Positions 1,111 to 29,145 of a DNA stretch of 40,617 nucleotides are shown one piece after another. How positions within the stretch are numbered: position 1 is the first letter of the stretch; each line of letters begins with the position of its first letter. The position numbers and the translations under genes are program-made. This stretch comes from an uncultured Acidimicrobiaceae bacterium. GTDB taxonomy: Bacteria > Actinomycetota > Acidimicrobiia > Acidimicrobiales > RAAP-2. The stretch spans positions 1-40,617 of the forward strand of contig CAZTQJ010000001.1 of NCBI GenBank assembly GCA_964615615.1. Reading direction: 5' to 3'. The notes beneath the pieces are model-generated. The model was not told the origin of the DNA and did not search any database. It was given only the letters and a program-made list of their open reading frames with translations.

Positions 1111-1123
1111 TTGCAAAAAAGAT

Positions 1124-1152
1124 TTGCGCCTGAGGGCAAAAGAACCCATAAT
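1124..1152 (+). promoter_or_regulatory. Sigma70-like promoter candidate, TTGCGC-N17-CATAAT.
   Basis: The -35-like hexamer is at 1124-1129, followed by a 17-nt spacer and a -10-like hexamer at 1147-1152. It sits just after the helicase stop. Confidence 0.3.
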
Positions 1153-1203
1153 TTAGGTCCGGTAGCAAACAGAAATTCAACTGAGGTTCCAGTGACAAGT
1201 TTC

Positions 1204-1767
1204 ATGGTTATGAGTGACGCGAACAGGCACACCATCCTTCGGGTGGACGTTGGACCGAAGTTCACGTCTTTCATTGGCCGCACCAAGAAGAACATTGACT
1301 TCCGCAAACTGCCGAACAAGCAGTTTGAGGAAACCTATCTCTGGCAGTATCCGGAGCACCCGATTGTCGGGTTTGCGAATTCGATCTGGAGCCTGCTGGA
1401 ATATGGGGTGCTCGTCACCCTTCGCGCGAGGAAGATCCTCGCCACTTTCTCCAAGGAGCCTTCAATGGCCTCTCCCACCCCCACCCCTGCCAAGATCGCC
1501 AAGGACGCTGAGTTCAAGCCCGTCAAGGCTCCCAAGGTCGCGGCCCCTGTCGCCGAGGGCTCCGAGCCCAAGGCTCGTGGCAAGCGCATCGAGAACCAGA
1601 AGATCCGCCTCCTGGTCAAGAGCAACCCCAAGCGTCCCTCCAGCGCCTCCTTCGGCCGCTTCGAGCTCTACACCACCAACAAGACCACCGACGAGTTCCT
1701 CGCCGCTGGGGGCCTCAGCGCCGACCTGCGCTACGACGTCGAGCACGAGTTCATCGAGCTCTACTAG
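1204..1767 (+). CDS. Hypothetical protein with an N-terminal region of unknown function, a Lys/Ala/Pro-rich segment and a C-terminal domain of about 55 aa paralogous to 27294..27536. A strong in-frame internal start lies at 1465.
   Basis: The frame is open from 1111, and the first ATG is at 1204. AAGGAG lies 6 nt before the ATG at 1465. In 1465-1767 I counted 91 of 100 sense codons ending in C or G and none in A. The alignment I.LLV..NPKR...ELY..T...F.AAGG.SADL..D...FI.L matches the 27294 protein. Confidence 0.6.
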   Translation: MVMSDANRHTILRVDVGPKFTSFIGRTKKNIDFRKLPNKQFEETYLWQYPEHPIVGFANSIWSLLEYGVLVTLRARKILATFSKEPSMASPTPTPAKIAKDAEFKPVKAPKVAAPVAEGSEPKARGKRIENQKIRLLVKSNPKRPSSASFGRFELYTTNKTTDEFLAAGGLSADLRYDVEHEFIELY

Positions 1768-1828: not shown

Positions 1829-2599
1829 GTGATCATTTACATCCCCACACTAAACCGCACACGCAAGCAGATCACCTACGAGAACCTACCCGCCGCCATC
1901 CGCAAGATTGCGGTCTTTGTTGCGAATGAGGCTGATGCGTCGATGCTCAAGCAGAAATACCCACTGTGCAAGGTCATGGTCTGCCTGAAGCATGGCATTG
2001 GCCGGACCCGCCAGTTCATCATCGACAACCACGACTTCGCGAACAGCGGCCCCCAGATCTGCATGCTCGACGATGACCTGAAGTTCTTTGACCGTCGCGA
2101 GGATGACCCCACGAAGTTCGAACTGGCAGGGGAAGAGTCCATTATCGCCATGTTCAACATGATCGCTACCCAGCTTCTGAACCACGCGCTCGTGAGCGTC
2201 ATGACCCGAGAGGGTGGCAACCGGAACACCGAGAACAGCTACAACACTCGTTGCCTGAGAGTGCTGGCCTATGATGCCGGCATCCTACGGCAGGAGAACA
2301 TCAAGTTCGACCGACTACCTGTCATGGAAGACTTTGATGTTGCCCTCCAGCTTCTCCGCAAGGGCTACCCGAATGTCAGCCTCGCCGCATGGGTGCAGGA
2401 TCAGGGTGGCAGCAACACAGCCGGAGGCTGCTCCGGCTATCGCACCATGGAAGTCCAAGCCGAGGGAGCTCATGGCCTGCGGGGATACCATCCCCAGTTC
2501 GTGCGCATCGTAGAGAAAGAGACCAAGGTCGCCTGGGGCGGCAAGAAGCGCACCGATGTCGTGGTCGCTTGGAAGAAGGCATTCAATGCGGACGTCTGA
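1829..2599 (+). CDS. GT-A-fold glycosyltransferase-like protein, resembling TET/JBP-associated glycosyltransferase (TAGT)-type phage proteins.
   Basis: GTG start. The N-terminus IYIPTLNR is Rossmann-like. ICMLDDDLKF is a DxD-like motif, and VMEDFDVALQLL is also present. It is the first gene of the 1829-5317 cassette. Confidence 0.5.
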   Translation: MIIYIPTLNRTRKQITYENLPAAIRKIAVFVANEADASMLKQKYPLCKVMVCLKHGIGRTRQFIIDNHDFANSGPQICMLDDDLKFFDRREDDPTKFELAGEESIIAMFNMIATQLLNHALVSVMTREGGNRNTENSYNTRCLRVLAYDAGILRQENIKFDRLPVMEDFDVALQLLRKGYPNVSLAAWVQDQGGSNTAGGCSGYRTMEVQAEGAHGLRGYHPQFVRIVEKETKVAWGGKKRTDVVVAWKKAFNADV

Positions 2600-3422
2600 G
2601 CTCTGGGCCTTTATCCGCGAGCGACACAATATCTACCTCGCGAAAACCGCTGGCCTTCCCAAGCCTTGGACCCAGGACAAGATCCTGGGTTCTTACCGTT
2701 TCTGCAATATGTATCGGGAGTTGGACTCGGTGACCCTATGGGTGGCTGAGAACTGGCGCAAGCCGCATGAATGGGACAACGACCTCTGGTTCGCTATGGT
2801 CGTGGCCCGACTGGTGAACTGGCCCGACACGCTGGAGATGATTGGCTACCCTGTTCCCTACGACAGCCACCGTTTCGTGAACGAGCTTCACTGCCAGAAG
2901 GCCCTCGGCAAAAAGGCGTTCAGTGGGGCATACATCGTCAGCACCAATGGTCATGCCATGGACAAAGCCGAGTATCTCGACAAGTATGTCCTGAAGCCCC
3001 TGTGGGATAACCGAGCCACCATCCGGCCCACGGAAGGCGACCACCTTGAGGACTTCTTCAACCGTCTCAACAAGTATAACGGGATGGGAAGTTTCATGGC
3101 TGGGCAGGTGATTGCGGATGCGAAATACGCTGGATGCCTCTTTAACGCACCTGATTGGTGGGCGTGGGCAGCTAGTGGACCGGGTAGTCGCAGGGGTCTC
3201 AACCGGGTCACCAGCCGTCCTGTTGATGCATCGTGGCCCGGTAACACATGGCACAAAACACTGTCGGAACTCAAGGTGCAGATCGACCACTTCGTGAACG
3301 CCGCTGGCTGGCCTGAGCTCCATGCCCAGGATCTCCAGAACTGTCTCTGCGAGTGGGATAAGTATGAGCGGACTCGGTTGGGCGAGGGCAAGCCCCGCTC
3401 CGGCTACCCTGGAGGTCTGTGA
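2586..3422 (+). CDS. Alpha-glutamyl/putrescinyl thymine pyrophosphorylase (aGPT-Pplase)-like protein. This is a tentative family call.
   Basis: The ORF is open from 2556, and ATGs lie at 2556 and 2586. The N-terminal motif PKPWTQDKILGSYRFCNMYRELDSVT, followed by DLWFAMVVARLVNWPDT, matches my recollection of this family. Its stop overlaps the next start as TGATG. Confidence 0.45.
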   Translation: MRTSELWAFIRERHNIYLAKTAGLPKPWTQDKILGSYRFCNMYRELDSVTLWVAENWRKPHEWDNDLWFAMVVARLVNWPDTLEMIGYPVPYDSHRFVNELHCQKALGKKAFSGAYIVSTNGHAMDKAEYLDKYVLKPLWDNRATIRPTEGDHLEDFFNRLNKYNGMGSFMAGQVIADAKYAGCLFNAPDWWAWAASGPGSRRGLNRVTSRPVDASWPGNTWHKTLSELKVQIDHFVNAAGWPELHAQDLQNCLCEWDKYERTRLGEGKPRSGYPGGL

Positions 3423-4414
3423 TGTATGTGATCCAGGCACTGAATGTGAACCATGCTCTCGCCGCTGGCCTGCGCTATCTGAACGAGCATGGGGAGCATG
3501 AAGAAAGCCGAAACGGTCCGGTGCTGGTCTCCCCCACGCCGGTCACTACGATGTATGCGATGCCCGAGCAGCGGGTGATGTTCAACCCCTTGCGAGAGGC
3601 CAACCCTTTCTTCCACCTTATGGAAGCCCTGTGGATGATGGCTGGCCGAAACGACCTCGCATGGCCCCTCTACTTCAACAAGCGATTCGTCGATTACAGT
3701 GACGACGGACAGACCATCCACGGAGCCTACGGCTACCGATGGCGGCAGCACTTCGAGATTGACCAGATCCACCAAGTCGTCAAGGAACTGCAGAACAACC
3801 CCAACTCTCGCCGCGCTGTGATCGGGATGTGGGATCCCGTTGCCGACTGTGGGGCGAACTTCCTGGACCTTCCCTGCAACACGACTATCTACTTCCGTGT
3901 GCGAAGTCGGTGCCTTGACATGACGGTGTGCAACCGTAGCAATGACATCTACTGGGGAGCCTATGGTGCGAACGCTGTCCACATGAGCATCCTGCAAGAG
4001 TTTGTCGCCAGGGCTCTCGGCCTGGGCATGGGATACTACTATCAAGTGAGCAACAACTATCACCTCTATACCGGCCTCATCGAGTTGGAGTCCAATTCTG
4101 CACGTGAGACGATGGCCCACCATAGCCTCAAGAATGACCACTACTCGGCACCCTTCATTGAGACGGTCAGCACCTATCCGCTGATGACCACAGCCGCTAC
4201 CTCATGGATGGCCGACCTCGCCCAGTTCATGACCCTGCCCACCAAGCGAGATGGATACACCGACCCCTTCTTTACCGAGGTGGCTGTGCCGATGTTCTGT
4301 GCATGGCATGAACGCAAGCAGAAAGTGAGTGACGGAGCGCACTGGGTATCACAGATTGCCGCTGATGACTGGCGGCTGGCCTGCACTGAATGGATGGATC
4401 GGAGAGTCAAGTGA
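3422..4414 (+). CDS. Divergent thymidylate-synthase-superfamily enzyme, either ThyA-like or a deoxypyrimidylate hydroxymethylase-like enzyme.
   Basis: GGAGG lies 6 nt upstream of the start. Motifs EALWMMAGRND, YGYRWR, NPNSRRAVIGMWD, LPCNTTIYF (catalytic Cys context), CNRSNDIYWG and NNYHLY are colinear with E. coli ThyA. Confidence 0.75.
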   Translation: MYVIQALNVNHALAAGLRYLNEHGEHEESRNGPVLVSPTPVTTMYAMPEQRVMFNPLREANPFFHLMEALWMMAGRNDLAWPLYFNKRFVDYSDDGQTIHGAYGYRWRQHFEIDQIHQVVKELQNNPNSRRAVIGMWDPVADCGANFLDLPCNTTIYFRVRSRCLDMTVCNRSNDIYWGAYGANAVHMSILQEFVARALGLGMGYYYQVSNNYHLYTGLIELESNSARETMAHHSLKNDHYSAPFIETVSTYPLMTTAATSWMADLAQFMTLPTKRDGYTDPFFTEVAVPMFCAWHERKQKVSDGAHWVSQIAADDWRLACTEWMDRRVK

Positions 4415-4929
4415 GAGAAGAACTTCTTAAGCGTGTCGATTTCATCCGCAAGGGTGGGAACACCAAGCGATATCACACTATCAACACCATCAACGAGAAT
4501 ACCGTGGCGCACCACAGTTTCGGCGTGGCGTGGATGATCTGGATGATTGGCGTCCCCACTGTCAATCTCCTGATGGCAGCACTGGCTCACGACCTCGCCG
4601 AGCAGGTGACTGGGGACATATCCTCCCCCACCAAGCGGCGGTTCCCTGAGCTGGCCTCTATGGTTCAACTCATGGAGGATGAAGTCCTTGACTCCCACAA
4701 TATGTTCTACCAGCTTAACGAGGAAGAGGCTCGCACTCTTAAGATGGCTGACCGTATGGACGGGATGCTGTTCTGCACCAATGAATTCGAACTGGGGAAC
4801 AGGGCGATTATCGAAGTCTACAACCGATACGTCTCCTATGTCGCCGAACTGAAACCCGTAGGCCGCGAGTGGGAAGTGTATCAGGCCATTCGCGCCATTA
4901 TGATGAGGCACACCGATGCAATCAGCTAA
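4390..4929 (+). CDS. HD-domain phosphohydrolase, YfbR-like 5-prime-deoxynucleotidase family.
   Basis: Motifs KRYH..NENTVAHHSFGVAW and ALAHDLAEQVTGDISSPTKR are present. The alternative GTG start at 4411 overlaps the upstream stop as GTGA. Confidence 0.75.
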   Translation: MDGSESQVREELLKRVDFIRKGGNTKRYHTINTINENTVAHHSFGVAWMIWMIGVPTVNLLMAALAHDLAEQVTGDISSPTKRRFPELASMVQLMEDEVLDSHNMFYQLNEEEARTLKMADRMDGMLFCTNEFELGNRAIIEVYNRYVSYVAELKPVGREWEVYQAIRAIMMRHTDAIS

Positions 4930-5317
4930 TAACAAACAGGAAGGTGGGTCTCACTATGCAGGCGAGTATCAGCACTGGGACTTCGTCTGTGAGTGCCTGG
5001 GCGGTAGGTATCTGGAGGGGAACCTCACCAAGTATATCGCTCGCTGGCGCAAGAAGAACGGGCTCCAGGACATCAGGAAAGCCCTGCACTACTTACTCAA
5101 GATTCGCGAGCTCTTTGCGGACGGTGATCTGACAGCCCCGCCTATTGCTCGGCGATCAGGCTCCGTCGAGCGTTTCTGCCTTGTAAACAATCTCGGCTCC
5201 CTAGAGAGCCGAGTGATGTGGATGGCAGCGAACTGGGAAGGAACGCGTGATTTGGATGTTCTCCAATCGGTGCTTCAGGAACTGGAATCTGAGGCCCTGT
5301 TGATCGCTATGTCCTAG
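4916..5317 (+). CDS. DUF3310-like small phage protein.
   Basis: Motif GGSHY...YQHWDFV...GNLTKYIARWRKKNGLQDIRKALHYL is present. It overlaps the upstream gene by 14 nt. Confidence 0.6.
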   Translation: MQSANNKQEGGSHYAGEYQHWDFVCECLGGRYLEGNLTKYIARWRKKNGLQDIRKALHYLLKIRELFADGDLTAPPIARRSGSVERFCLVNNLGSLESRVMWMAANWEGTRDLDVLQSVLQELESEALLIAMS

Positions 5318-24302: not shown

Positions 24303-25929
24303 TCATCCACCCCGTAGTTTCAAAGGAATAAGTGACATACTCTGGGTTCTTGGCGTCCTTCTTCAACAGACCTGTCCGTGCGACTTCCCTGCCACTCGCC
24401 ACTAGATAGCGGGTGCAGTCCATCAAGTGATCAAAGTCCTTAACGACCTTGCCCTTGTCATCGCGTCGATACATCCGGAACTCAGTGAACCAGTTCTGCA
24501 TACTGGAACATACCTTGATCTTACCAGTGGAGAGCCCCTGCCAGACCTTGTAGATCCCACTCTCCACACCGTTGTCCGCAGGTTGGAGAATCAGACCGTT
24601 GTCCTCGTAAAGGGACAGCAACTGGACGCCATCGGCCTGACTCTTACCTCGGCTTGCAGGGTCAATCACACCATGGATCCACTTACCTCGGGCGTGGATG
24701 CCCTGCACATGGATGATCGGCTCGGCCTGGGAGCGATAATACTCGCTATAGAGGTAGAGCGTCCCAGTCTCCAGGTCCCATGCTCCCCAGACAGCGGCGG
24801 TCTTATTCCACCCGACGTCCAGGGCGAACGCTCGGGGCCAGTGCTCAGGAATCTCAAAGTCGGCGCAGGTAATCTCGCTCTCGAGGACAGGGTAGATGGC
24901 ACCACTACCGAGCTGAGGAATCCCCTTCGAACGAGCGTCCCGCTGAAATGGGGGGATCGACTCCCAGAGCTCGGCCTTCACCTTGTCGTCCAGGTGAGGC
25001 GCATCGTCCCAGGTCGCCATCACCACATACTTCGATGAGTTCGGCGCACTCGGATCGTCGATCGCCATGTCGTCCTTGAGCCGGCCTCCTGGGAGGAAGT
25101 CTAGCACCACCTCGCTCATGCCTTGGAGGGGCGTGAAGGTCAGGAGCATGATCCCATCGTTCGTCATCGTTCGGATGAGACACTCGGTATGGATCGCGAG
25201 TGGCGGCTCCTCGTCCTCTAGGATCACGTCCTGCTCGGTCCCCTCGAACGCTTTCCGCCCCTGCTCGTAGGACTTGAATTCTAGCTGACTGACCCCGCCC
25301 CAGCGGGAGGCGACATATATGATAGAGACTGAGTCGGCGACACCGCCAGCGGCAGTGACCTTGACGATCTTATCGTGCGGTATCAGGCCCTCGCCCCAGT
25401 GACCCACAGGCCCGAGGATCTTGTCCTGCAGAATTTCTCTGACCTTCTGCTGACTGACAGCGCAGGCCCATGCCTTAATCGGCTTGTGGAACTTCCGCCC
25501 GACCCACCAGTCCGGATAGTCACCCGTGAGGTGGAGGGTGAGCTCATAGAGCCCGACTCCCTCTGTCTTGCCGACTCGGTTCGCTGCCAGCATCAGCCGC
25601 TGACGATGTCTCGCCCCAGCGGCGAAGAACTTCATGTGCTTCACGTAGAGTTCTCGTCGCAGCGGCCCAGTGTCCGGGTAGAACGTCCGGATCTTGTTTC
25701 GCCGCTTCCGGCTGGCCTGCTCACGAAGGAGCGTAATCTGCTGAATCTTCTGCTCACGGGAGAGCTCGACCTGCGCCTCGGGCGTCACCTTCAGGTTCCT
25801 GACAGCTGGATCGTCGCTCAGGAAGACCACATCATCAACGAACGACTCATCCGTCGGCTTGGGAGGAGCCTTCTTCCGGCTACTCTTCGCCCTGGGCTTA
25901 GGAGTCTTGATGGTGATGGGCTTCACCAT
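24295..25929 (-). CDS. terL: Terminase large subunit.
   Basis: The Walker A-like motif AANRVGKTEG is present. The start at 25929 shares TGATG with the terS stop. The longer ORF to 26061 overlaps terS and is rejected. Confidence 0.9.
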   Translation of the reverse strand: MVKPITIKTPKPRAKSSRKKAPPKPTDESFVDDVVFLSDDPAVRNLKVTPEAQVELSREQKIQQITLLREQASRKRRNKIRTFYPDTGPLRRELYVKHMKFFAAGARHRQRLMLAANRVGKTEGVGLYELTLHLTGDYPDWWVGRKFHKPIKAWACAVSQQKVREILQDKILGPVGHWGEGLIPHDKIVKVTAAGGVADSVSIIYVASRWGGVSQLEFKSYEQGRKAFEGTEQDVILEDEEPPLAIHTECLIRTMTNDGIMLLTFTPLQGMSEVVLDFLPGGRLKDDMAIDDPSAPNSSKYVVMATWDDAPHLDDKVKAELWESIPPFQRDARSKGIPQLGSGAIYPVLESEITCADFEIPEHWPRAFALDVGWNKTAAVWGAWDLETGTLYLYSEYYRSQAEPIIHVQGIHARGKWIHGVIDPASRGKSQADGVQLLSLYEDNGLILQPADNGVESGIYKVWQGLSTGKIKVCSSMQNWFTEFRMYRRDDKGKVVKDFDHLMDCTRYLVASGREVARTGLLKKDAKNPEYVTYSFETTGWMNA

Positions 25930-26282
25930 CACTTCCCCGACATCAGTGCTTCGAGTTGGCGAGCGATATCTTCGTCGCTGAGCTCCTCGGCTCCGTCGAT
26001 ATTCTCTACCTGCTGAGCGGTGAGCTTCGGGGCGAAGTAGTTCGCACACGCAGTCGCACACTCCACCCGATCAGTGAAGTTCGGGTAGTAGACTCGCTCA
26101 CGGAGGGAACCATCCTCTCGCTCCTCGACCAGATCAATGCCCTCACCTCGCGCCACACGCAGAAGGAACTCATGGGGGAGCTCACCGCCATCTCTGGCTC
26201 GCTTTCGTGACTCCTCGGCCCATCGGCCCGTCGCTCCCTTGCCCCTCGCTCCTAGGCCGGTTCGTGCGCTGAGATCTGCCAT
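25929..26282 (-). CDS. terS: Terminase small subunit-like protein.
   Basis: It is the first gene of the structural arm and is coupled to terL. GGAG lies 5 nt before the ATG. Confidence 0.6.
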   Translation of the reverse strand: MADLSARTGLGARGKGATGRWAEESRKRARDGGELPHEFLLRVARGEGIDLVEEREDGSLRERVYYPNFTDRVECATACANYFAPKLTAQQVENIDGAEELSDEDIARQLEALMSGK

Positions 26283-26299: not shown

Positions 26300-26328
26300 A
26301 GTATACGCTCGAATGAATCCAGATGCAA
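26300..26328 (-). promoter_or_regulatory. Sigma70-like promoter candidate for the structural arm, TTGCAT-N17-TATACT.
   Basis: On the minus strand the -35 hexamer is at 26328-26323 and the -10 hexamer at 26305-26300, with an exact 17-nt spacer. The GGAG SD and the terS ATG follow directly. Confidence 0.4.
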
Positions 26329-27001: not shown

Positions 27002-27140
27002 ACCCCATAGGCTACCCAAGGGTAAACAACGCACCCCATAAACACAGTTTGCAGTAACAATGGGCATTGTTACCCTGCACAGTAACAATGCGCCTAATTT
27101 TTATACAGACAAAATAATAAAAGTATTTTGAAATTAGGGC

Positions 27141-27169
27141 TTGCACAGCGCCGCCCAATGGCTTAACCT
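27141..27169 (+). promoter_or_regulatory. Promoter candidate TTGCAC-N17-TAACCT.
   Basis: It has the same architecture, and the same TAACCTTTAGGTA-like -10 context, as the candidate at 27849-27877. Confidence 0.3.
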
Positions 27170-27227: not shown

Positions 27228-27253
27228 GTAACAATGCAATACCGCATTGTTAC
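27228..27253. promoter_or_regulatory. Operator-like palindrome GTAACAATGC-N6-GCATTGTTAC.
   Basis: It is a perfect 10-bp inverted repeat ending 4 nt before the -35-like TTGCGG of the adjacent promoter candidate. It is built from the iteron word. Confidence 0.6.
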
Positions 27254-27256
27254 AAC

Positions 27257-27285
27257 TTGCGGCCACAATGCCGCACCACTATAAG
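27257..27285 (+). promoter_or_regulatory. Promoter candidate TTGCGG-N17-TATAAG immediately upstream of the 27294 gene.
   Basis: The spacer is exactly 17 nt. The -10 hexamer ends 8 nt before the ATG, which implies a very short or absent leader. Confidence 0.35.
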
Positions 27286-27293
27286 GGGCTAAC

Positions 27294-27536
27294 ATGCCCA
27301 AGCAAGCTACCACGCCCAGCACCACGCCCAGCACCCCTAAGGTGCCTAAGGTGGCAAACCAAGCCATTACCCTACTGGTAACGGTAAATCCCAAACGTGG
27401 CAAAAGCCAAGCCCGTTACGAGCTGTATAAAACCTGCACCACTACCCATGCTTTTATTGCGGCAGGTGGTTACAGCGCCGACCTTGCCTGGGACACCCAG
27501 CGCAAGTTTATTAGCCTTGCACCCATTACCGCCTAA
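27294..27536 (+). CDS. Small protein (80 aa) paralogous to the C-terminus of 1204..1767. It is a candidate DNA-binding regulator or origin-binding protein.
   Basis: It is a clean ORF between the operator-like palindrome and an intrinsic terminator, with the shared motif LLV..NPKR...ELY...F.AAGG.SADL. I counted 32 of 80 codons ending in A or T. Confidence 0.75.
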   Translation: MPKQATTPSTTPSTPKVPKVANQAITLLVTVNPKRGKSQARYELYKTCTTTHAFIAAGGYSADLAWDTQRKFISLAPITA

Positions 27537-27541
27537 CACCA

Positions 27542-27570
27542 AAAGCCCGGCTACACAGCCGGGCTTTTTT
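27542..27570 (+). terminator. Intrinsic terminator.
   Basis: AGCCCGGCT (27544-27552), loop ACAC, AGCCGGGCT (27557-27565), then TTTTT. Confidence 0.85.
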
Positions 27571-27741
27571 GTGCTTGCACCCATAAACACCCATATGCAT
27601 ACCTATGCATACTTGCACCAATGCCTGCACCCATACTTGCAAACCGCAATATTGTAAAAACAATTTTCGTTGCCTAAAACCGCGAGGATTCACCTGGGCC
27701 TTCCCACATCGCTATTTCCGTATGGCCTACGAAGAAAACTC

Positions 27742-27786
27742 CAAGACGCGAGGATCGTTTTGAAAATTGGCCCGGCGATTTCACGC
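27742..27786 (+). promoter_or_regulatory. Conserved intergenic element, copy 1. Its partner is at 29102..29145.
   Basis: CAAGACGCGAG-GATC-GTTTT...TCACGC. The first 20 nt match the partner at 18 positions. It lies upstream of the early gene block. Confidence 0.45.
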
Positions 27787-27848
27787 GAGCGCGAGAGTGA
27801 TCCCCTAGGCTTGCCGCAAACTATTTGCTATCAACCGTAACTTAACCC

Positions 27849-27877
27849 TTGCGTTAGATGCCCCATGATTGTAACCT
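27849..27877 (+). promoter_or_regulatory. Promoter candidate TTGCGT-N17-TAACCT for the early operon.
   Basis: The spacer is exactly 17 nt. The -10 hexamer lies about 39 nt upstream of the ATG at 27916, which has a GGAGG SD. Confidence 0.35.
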
Positions 27878-27915
27878 TTAAGGTATAGGGTATTACCCCT
27901 ACCACGGAGGCTATC

Positions 27916-29101: not shown

Positions 29102-29145
29102 CAAGACGCGAGAACCGTTTTCAATTTCCACCAGGGCAATCACGC
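29102..29145 (+). promoter_or_regulatory. Conserved intergenic element, copy 2. Its partner is at 27742..27786.
   Basis: CAAGACGCGAG-AACC-GTTTT...TCACGC. It ends 20 nt upstream of the ATG at 29165. Confidence 0.45.

Follow-up and report, generated by a model that had tools for sequence, protein, structure and literature searches.

The 80-residue open reading frame considered here lies in a low-GC, repeat-dense hub (26.3-28.2 kb) between the two arms of a tailed-phage genome, represented by the 40.6-kb contig CAZTQJ010000001.1 (the window; that is, the whole stretch of 40,617 nucleotides (nt) that was analysed). It is a minigene, and its product represents in minimal, stand-alone form a large, apparently undescribed domain family tied to SNF2 motors and to thymidine-hypermodifying phages. 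The main interest lies in this product, since the lambda-like circuit proposed for the locus in an earlier note, made from the sequence by itself, is mostly contradicted by comparison with relatives. Our proposal is that a phage of lytic type, its DNA probably bearing hypermodified thymidine, expresses the minigene early and as a monocistronic unit. Transcription would start upstream of position 27228, most likely from a TTGCAC-N17-TAACCT promoter candidate (Table 1), and would give a leader with two adjacent stem-loops, a palindrome and the hairpin behind it, presumably acting at the RNA level. Translation would depend on a Shine-Dalgarno (SD) sequence, AAGGGG, and, as conservation suggests, is probably tuned by a 4-bp hairpin that joins the SD to the start codon; transcription would end at the strong terminator that follows the gene. 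In the product a disordered Pro/Thr tail would precede a single copy of a widespread beta-alpha-alpha-alpha-beta domain, as yet unannotated, which may grip the nucleic-acid backbone and work with the replication, SNF2 and DNA-modification machinery on phage DNA. The domain is not thought to be a sequence-specific iteron reader. Taken as a whole (early monocistronic unit, structured leader, SD-dependent translation and nucleic-acid-gripping product), the proposal stands about evenly poised between right and wrong.

The minigene is syntenic in eight related phage lineages (L002, L008, L011, L016, L017, L025, L026 and L027). Three relatives came from a word-indexed search and the others from contig look-ups and viral-contig scans; a metagenome-contig scan yielded no confirmed locus. 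In all eight lineages it is the first plus-strand gene past the hub, which makes it the first gene of the early arm, and wherever the relative's contig extends far enough it is flanked by the terminase and DUF932 arms. Over the 60-codon conserved part, synonymous and nonsynonymous codon differences from the window numbered 13 and 1 in L011, 16 and 2 in L025, 21 and 9 in L002, and 27 and 16 in L008. Judged by these syntenic homologues and the excess of synonymous changes, the minigene is a genuine gene under purifying selection. The closest relative is L025, whose protein belongs to the same 90%-identity cluster as the window protein and differs from it at two residues of the domain. The L011 protein is 94% identical over the aligned part.

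The end of the gene is equally well defined. A GC-rich stem-loop and T-run directly past the stop codon have the form of an intrinsic terminator, which is kept with different, covarying stems in L025, L011, L002, L008, L016 and L027. The strong terminator described in the earlier note is thereby confirmed and, with an SD conserved alongside it, so is the real, self-contained gene. The note had also called the codon usage unlike that of the rest of the genome; 32 of the 80 codons do end in A or T, but this fraction (0.40) falls within the 0.18-0.41 of other genes on the contig.

Among relatives the N-terminal 15-40 residues vary in length and contain Pro/Thr/Ser/Ala repeats. A perfect 12-nt tandem repeat in the window (two copies of ACCACGCCCAGC, 27309-27332, plus strand) encodes TTPS-TTPS in the protein tail, and L025 has a longer Thr run plus three PST repeats in the corresponding tail (530-575). 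The length of the tail therefore appears to change by repeat slippage.

The minigene product is strongly basic (8.6 kDa, isoelectric point (pI) 10.0). Its conserved part is a domain of ~55 residues with the consensus ITLLV-x-NPKR-G-x-S-xx-R-F/Y-x-L-Y-xx-GMTV-xx-Y-x-AAGG-xx-AD-I/L-x-WD-xxxx-FI-x-V. A profile of the conserved part gave 1,235 matches (clusters at 50% identity, E ≤ 1e-3) against 1.84 billion metagenome-library entries. The family profile matches the full domain both in the minigene product (hmmsearch 1.1e-30) and in that of a paralog near the start of the window (1.8e-24). In 45 sequences N32, P33, K34, Y45 and D67 are invariant and R35, R41, T50, G58, G59, D63, W66 and I73 are at least 90% conserved; the minigene protein carries the whole family signature, that is, the N-P-K-R loop, R, Y, GG turn and D..WD helix. 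In a sample of 237 members the domain has a median pI of 9.5 (> 8 in 91%) and lies at the C-terminus in 82%. The 40 residues before it comprise 21% A, 18% K and 9% P and resemble the tail of histone H1.

Searches of known families did not place the domain. Pfam, PHROGs and NCBIfam gave just scattered chance matches with the minigene protein and 45 family members, a PDB sequence search with two profiles gave zero matches and tblastn of two family members (P0001 and P0015) against 50,697 GenBank phage records gave no match. No description of the NPKR...WD domain was found in literature searches. Identity with the HARP domain (PF07443) was rejected, there being no match in the 45-sequence sample even at E ≤ 1. 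The minigene protein is not recognizable as a Bac_DNA_binding (HU/TF1) protein, with no Pfam match at E ≤ 10 and no PDB sequence match. Iteron-binding initiators have tandem winged-helix domains and a mass of ~30-40 kDa, and are encoded beside their own iterons. The minigene does adjoin iterons; its product, with a single 55-residue domain, a mass of 8.6 kDa and no Rep family match, is not of the RepA, pi or TrfA type.

An AlphaFold2 model built with a 70-sequence alignment had a mean predicted local distance difference test (pLDDT) score of 83.8, with > 90 over residues 21-77 and low confidence for the first 20 residues. The predicted topology is strand 23-27, helices 37-47, 51-56 and 61-69, and strand 73-77, and the model displays the NPKR loop, a GxS helix cap, the AAGG turn and the WD helix. 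Neither sequence profiles nor structure comparison (Pfam, NCBIfam, PDB and Foldseek) assigned the protein to the winged-helix or helix-turn-helix families, although a divergent helix-turn-helix is conceivable in a model with three helices between two strands. The fold check for a DNA-binding domain, which the earlier note had recommended, therefore answers neither yes nor no: the domain is modelled with confidence and has no significant neighbour among DNA-binding folds.

Longer family members include SNF2 helicases with the NPKR...WD domain at the C-terminus (P0131). Two long, low-complexity metagenomic proteins of eukaryote-like character (P0029 and P0032) carry two domain copies each. P0029 has two PHD-type zinc fingers in addition, which suggests a further use of the domain on chromatin beyond phages. 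In the window the paralog lies directly after the SNF2 helicase gene and before the TAGT/thymidine-hypermodification genes; its N-terminal ~150 residues gave no family match. Thirteen further, non-orthologous loci were examined and the domain was re-found in 12, to which the following counts refer. PolA, SNF2, ligase or primase-helicase genes are present in the flanks of 9 loci (PolA in 8, SNF2 in 6), the HMUDK/TAGT/ThyA-like set in 5, and none of the tested genes in 3. Because of the charge, the A/K/P tails, the SNF2 and PHD fusions and these neighbouring genes, a nucleic-acid-handling role is our best guess for the domain and a plausible one.

The SNF2 association can also be understood as protein-protein contact, with the domain engaging the phage SNF2 helicase or polymerase as partner or decoy, or serving as an early anti-defence factor. 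Physical interaction is classically indicated when, as here with SNF2, two partners are fused in some phages and adjacent in others; the first early gene is a position often given to host take-over or anti-defence; and no known DNA-binding fold was found. Such a module is nevertheless unlikely in view of the high pI throughout the family, the histone-H1-like tails and the PHD-finger partners in eukaryote-like proteins. The nucleic-acid-handling role could be taken a step further, with the domain specialised for reading DNA that contains 5-hydroxymethyluracil-derived (hypermodified) thymidine. In phages it would then serve, alone or with a fused or adjacent SNF2 motor, to label or handle the modified phage genome; in some eukaryotes it would act together with PHD fingers on modified chromatin; and the minigene would supply an abundant stand-alone form made first after infection. 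This extension is a long shot.

All elements described in the earlier note (10-6-10 palindrome, TTGCGG-N17-TATAAG, AAGGGG, 80-residue frame and terminator) are present in the sequence where it had placed them. Its suggestion that AAGGGG could act as an SD proved sound, as every lineage has AAGGGG, AAGGAG, CAGGAG, AAAGGAG, CCGGAG or AAAGGTG at this position, 5-7 nt from the ATG. The promoter that it had proposed to abut the ATG fared worse. TTGCGG matches the consensus at 3 of 6 positions and TATAAG, which ends 8 nt before the ATG, at 5 of 6 (8 of 12 together), and the -10 ends in G, not in the near-invariant T. As promoter hexamers the two do not exceed chance. A sigma70 consensus scan, which returned 4 sites in the region against 3.0 expected, did not pick out 27257-27285. 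Neither hexamer is conserved in L025, L011, L002 or L008: the counterparts of TATAAG are ACAAAG, TACAGG, TACAAG and TCCAAG, respectively, and TTGCGG reads CAGCGG in L025, where the gene, SD, hairpins and terminator are all kept.

Conservation is seen instead in the pairing of the leader. A hairpin with different stems is present 17-21 nt before the ATG in L011, L002, L008, L017, L025 and L026, and covaries across lineages. The mini-hairpin that joins the SD to the start codon, predicted in all lineages, pairs GGGC with GCCC in the window and AGCC with GGCU in L025 and L011, giving two compensatory pairs between the window and L025. The window's unusual second codon, CCC (Pro; elsewhere GCY, Ala), is matched by an upstream change. 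Such compensation would be meaningless unless the SD were transcribed, and the SD would therefore form part of the mRNA. Over the leader stems as a whole, 97.5% of cells are paired, compared with 20-43% when partners are slid. Against a promoter abutting the ATG stand the loss of its hexamers in L025, the conserved SD that overlaps its -10 and the position of its -35 inside a covarying hairpin. The leaderless or near-leaderless mRNA drawn from it is likewise disfavoured by comparison of the sequences, given the conserved SD, the compensated SD-ATG hairpin and the unconserved hexamers.

The palindrome, GTAACAATGC-AATACC-GCATTGTTAC, lies 4 nt before the second leader hairpin. Its single-stranded form has a folding energy of -13.8 kcal/mol (z = -6.5), a value equalled by 0 of 200 shuffles. 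At the same place L025 has the 10-6-10 palindrome GCACCTATGC-AATAAC-GCATAGGTGC, in which 3 of the 10 arm positions differ and every change is compensated; 100% of cells pair between the window and L025, compared with 20-43% with partners slid. There is no palindrome in L011, and L002 and L008 likewise lack one while keeping the gene. Of the idea of an operator built from the iteron word, the perfect 10-bp inverted repeat stands, but the word is not kept, since the L025 arms (GCACCTATGC) differ from it. Because L025 retains the geometry with different, compensated arms, it is the stem rather than the word that is conserved. A structural element is therefore the favoured reading, and a second leader stem-loop the simplest form of it.

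The palindrome might alternatively be a DNA operator or roadblock for another dimeric phage or host protein, situated between the upstream promoter and the minigene, with the minigene product not its ligand. The perfect symmetry and the concerted change of both arms in L025 would suit such a site, as would a hub dense with protein-binding-like repeats and the recurrence of the L025 arm word ACCTATGC downstream of the gene, as also happens in the window at ~27603. We think it improbable, as the neighbouring hairpin, only 4 nt away, clearly covaries as a structure in six lineages, no protein stands out as a candidate binder, and L011, L002 and L008 lack the palindrome while the same gene is apparently still expressed.

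The iteron word itself, AACAATGC, has 9 copies in the window where 1.2 would be expected, an ~8-fold enrichment. In the hub GTAACAATG words at 27054-27091 have variable spacing and are kept in L025, L008 and L002. These may be origin or regulatory sites, and nothing links them to the minigene protein in particular. At 27054-27100 (plus strand) three GTAACAATG words run forward-reverse-forward, the outer pair forming a 10-bp stem followed by a T-run. This stem scores as terminator-like and lies just upstream of the promoter candidate at 27141.

On sequence grounds this candidate is the most likely minigene promoter. It shares TAACCTTTAGGTA (-10 plus downstream bases) with the early promoter at 27849-27877 and occupies a place homologous to that of a TGGC-N8-TGCA element in L025 and L011. 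A leader that began there would be ~118 nt long and folds well (z = -4.4).

Promoters of the gene appear to have turned over among relatives. TGGC-N8-TGC[AT], which has sigma54 -24/-12 geometry, is found upstream of the orthologous gene in six lineages (L002, L008, L011, L017, L025 and L026). In all of these except L025, where the element lies ~285 nt upstream of the ATG, the leader hairpin begins at the predicted +1 or a few bases from it. A second TGGC-N8-TGC element, followed by ACGCGYGCGCGTTCCA, is common to L008, L016, L017 and L026. L016 and L027 have instead GTAATTTACCnCTTGCGC-N17-TATCCT, a copy of the early promoter (TTGCGT-N17-TAACCT in the window). No -24/-12 element, and hence no sigma54 promoter, was found in the window hub: compared with TGGCGCAGCCTTTGCA in L025, the window reads TGGCTTAACCTTTAGG and lacks 9 nt that include the -12 TGCA. 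A search for rpoN in the contig's 1.67-Mb bin (87% complete), which may not be that of the host, gave no Sigma54_DBD or AID match. PF00158 gave weak, generic AAA+ matches only and no activator protein was identified in the bin, the binning of a phage contig being no proof of its host. Absence of rpoN fits loss of the -24/-12 element, though the bin is possibly not the host's. Literature searches found no sigma54 early promoters in lytic phages.

Several observations weigh against the proposal. The evidence for nucleic-acid binding consists of charge, fusions and neighbourhood, and Foldseek returned no PDB neighbour at E ≤ 0.001, ribosomal uL30 coming nearest (E = 2.3, template modelling (TM) score 0.37-0.47). 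Hypermodification genes flank just 5 of the 12 non-orthologous loci, and the phages concerned are mutually related, so that these counts are not independent. Symmetric changes in both arms of the palindrome would also be expected of a homodimer operator whose binder had shifted its specificity. The promoter at 27141 is seen in the window only, L025 having TGGC-N8-TGCA there, and TTGCGG-N17-TAT, being similar to the TTGCGC-N17-TATCCT promoters found in L016 and L027, could be a young, lineage-specific promoter.

The circuit of the earlier note, in which the protein reads the AACAATGC iterons and represses its own (near-)leaderless mRNA through the palindrome as operator of a TTGCGG-N17-TATAAG promoter, has all of its elements in place, a basic protein, GTAACAATG words that are kept together with the protein in the hubs of L025, L008 and L002, and in TTGCGN with a 17-nt spacer the promoter style of the phage group, yet it is very improbable given hexamers lost in L025 and other relatives, a -10 without its final T, a conserved SD with compensated pairing to the ATG, L025 palindrome arms that are not the iteron word although the domain there differs at only 2 residues, the lack of any palindrome in L011 with its 94% identical protein, a huge family whose invariant polar surface is unlike that of sequence-specific regulators and the absence of a winged-helix match.

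Table 1. Coordinates of the minigene, its signals and related features (window positions unless a lineage is named)
Feature	Position	Strand	Remarks
Paralog gene	1111-1767	+	Same domain at C-terminus; hmmsearch 1.8e-24; 53% identity over 59 aa
Candidate sigma70-type promoter TTGCAC-N17-TAACCT	27141-27169	+	~125 nt upstream of ATG; inferred from pattern scan
10-6-10 palindrome	27228-27253 (arms 27228-27237, 27244-27253)	.	Most likely mRNA-leader stem-loop, alternatively DNA operator
Promoter candidate of the earlier note, TTGCGG-N17-TATAAG	27257-27262 and 27280-27285	+	Probably not a functional promoter
Leader hairpin 2, TGCGGC-CACAAT-GCCGCA	27258-27275	+	Ends 18 nt before ATG; 5' arm holds the proposed -35
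Shine-Dalgarno AAGGGG	27283-27288	+	5 nt before ATG; overlaps the proposed -10
SD-ATG mini-hairpin GGGC-UAACAU-GCCC	27286-27299	+	3' part of SD pairs with start codon and codon 2; predicted in all lineages
80-aa gene	27294-27536	+	ATG 27294, stop 27534-27536; homologs E = 1e-23 to 1e-45
Minigene residues 1-21			Variable Pro/Thr/Ser-rich tail; includes 12-nt tandem repeat 27309-27332
Minigene residues ~22-77	27357-27524	+	Conserved basic domain; hidden Markov model match 1e-30; AlphaFold2 pLDDT > 90
Intrinsic terminator	27541-27570	+	12-bp stem (27541-27568; 7 GC pairs), 4-nt loop, T6; -23.1 kcal/mol, z = -5.95
Sigma54-like TGGC-N8-TGC	L002 2935-2950; L008 2895-2910, 2454-2469; L011 98-113	+	
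Sigma54-like TGGC-N8-TGC	L017 2130, 2332, 2377; L025 214-229; L026 ~2203, ~2425; L016 2192	+	

The window belongs to a metagenomic bin of 1.67 Mb and has a GC content of 56%, compared with 58% for the remainder of the bin. Terminase, portal, capsid and tail genes occupy the minus strand at ~6.4-26.3 kb. The plus-strand early/replication arm starts at 28.2 kb and encodes DUF932, a DUF3854/DUF5906 primase-helicase, ligase, PolA, a PD-(D/E)XK nuclease and SNF2. The SNF2 helicase gene is split over the contig ends (40239-40617, then 28-1110; the analysis elsewhere gives 1-1110). From there the early arm continues into a thymidine-hypermodification cluster (1829-5317, plus strand) with TAGT (PF20691), a 5-hydroxymethyldeoxyuridine (5-hmdU) DNA kinase (PF18723), a ThyA-like protein, a YfbR-like HD phosphatase and DUF3310. 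Phage DNA is thus probably modified at thymine, to judge from gene content, and this would matter for protein-DNA recognition in the hub. By PolA the closest cultured relatives, Pseudoxanthomonas phage PW916 and Stenotrophomonas phage AXL3, are just ~45% identical. The 2-kb hub had no blastn match among GenBank phages. Rfam gave none at the gathering score for the region, sub-threshold terminator matches being mere hairpin matches, and a tRNA scan found zero.

Other signals surround the minigene. TTGCAT-N17-TATACT at 26300-26328 (minus strand), just upstream of the first structural-arm gene (25929-26282), could serve as promoter of the opposite arm. A strongly conserved non-coding element (27672-27806, plus strand; GAAGAAAACTCCAAGACGCGAGGATCGTTTTGAAAAT...CACGCGAGCGCGAG), present in six lineages, separates the minigene terminator from the early promoter and has a second, partial copy at 29102-29145. 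A structured RNA was rejected for this element, as RNAalifold gave no covariation. The conserved early promoter (TTGCGT-N17-TAACCT, 27849-27877) is followed by a hairpin, AGGG-TATTAC-CCCT (27887-27900), both on the plus strand. The layout of 27849-27900 recurs in L002, L008, L016 and L025, with TACCAT, TATAAT or TAACCT as the -10.

A small basic early protein whose gene has its own promoter and terminator is commonplace in phages. What sets this one apart is its domain, as fusions (SNF2, PHD) and neighbours (PolA, ligase, 5-hmdU kinase, TAGT) suggest a task on DNA, perhaps modified DNA, and its function, once known, would annotate thousands of genes. The locus is also a natural experiment in promoter turnover, the same gene having a -24/-12-like element in six lineages, TTGCGC-N17-TATCCT in two and neither in the window. 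If the -24/-12 elements are real sigma54 promoters, they would be unusual for the first early gene of a lytic phage.

Among known systems, the sole named structural neighbour, and the only one that Foldseek found in a viral library, is Gp18 of the Alphaproteobacteria phage PhiJL001 (UniProt Q5DN87; probability 1.0, 26% identity, TM 0.68 on the query). Gp18 probably belongs to the family and carries the domain terminally in a longer protein. It differs in its length of 151 residues and in coming from another phage type, and, being uncharacterised, gives no functional information. Sigma54 (-24/-12) promoters are resembled by the TGGC-N8-TGC[AT] elements of six relatives, whereas in the window the 9-nt gap removes the -12 TGCA. 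The earlier note had likened the locus to lambda cI and its leaderless, autoregulated transcript from PRM, and the two do share a small regulator gene beside palindromic sites in a divergent control region. The minigene differs from cI in its conserved SD and structured leader, in a proposed promoter that is unconserved, in the lack of a recognised helix-turn-helix and in a palindrome that lies upstream of the -35 without overlapping it.

Two further systems bear comparison. HARP, found on SMARCAL1-type and phage SNF2 helicases (PF07443), is also a small basic accessory domain (~55-65 residues) of SNF2 motors and is thought to recognise DNA structure. The NPKR...WD domain differs in having no PF07443 match, in its predicted beta-3 alpha-beta topology and in its place at the SNF2 C-terminus, HARP being N-terminal. 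TF1 of Bacillus phage SPO1 is an HU-type protein that prefers 5-hydroxymethyluracil DNA. The minigene protein has no sequence or fold relation to it, with neither a Pfam nor a PDB match. As a small, basic, abundant DNA-binding protein of a phage in which thymine is replaced or modified, however, TF1 may be the closest working analogy for the product of a phage with HMUDK, TAGT and ThyA-like genes.

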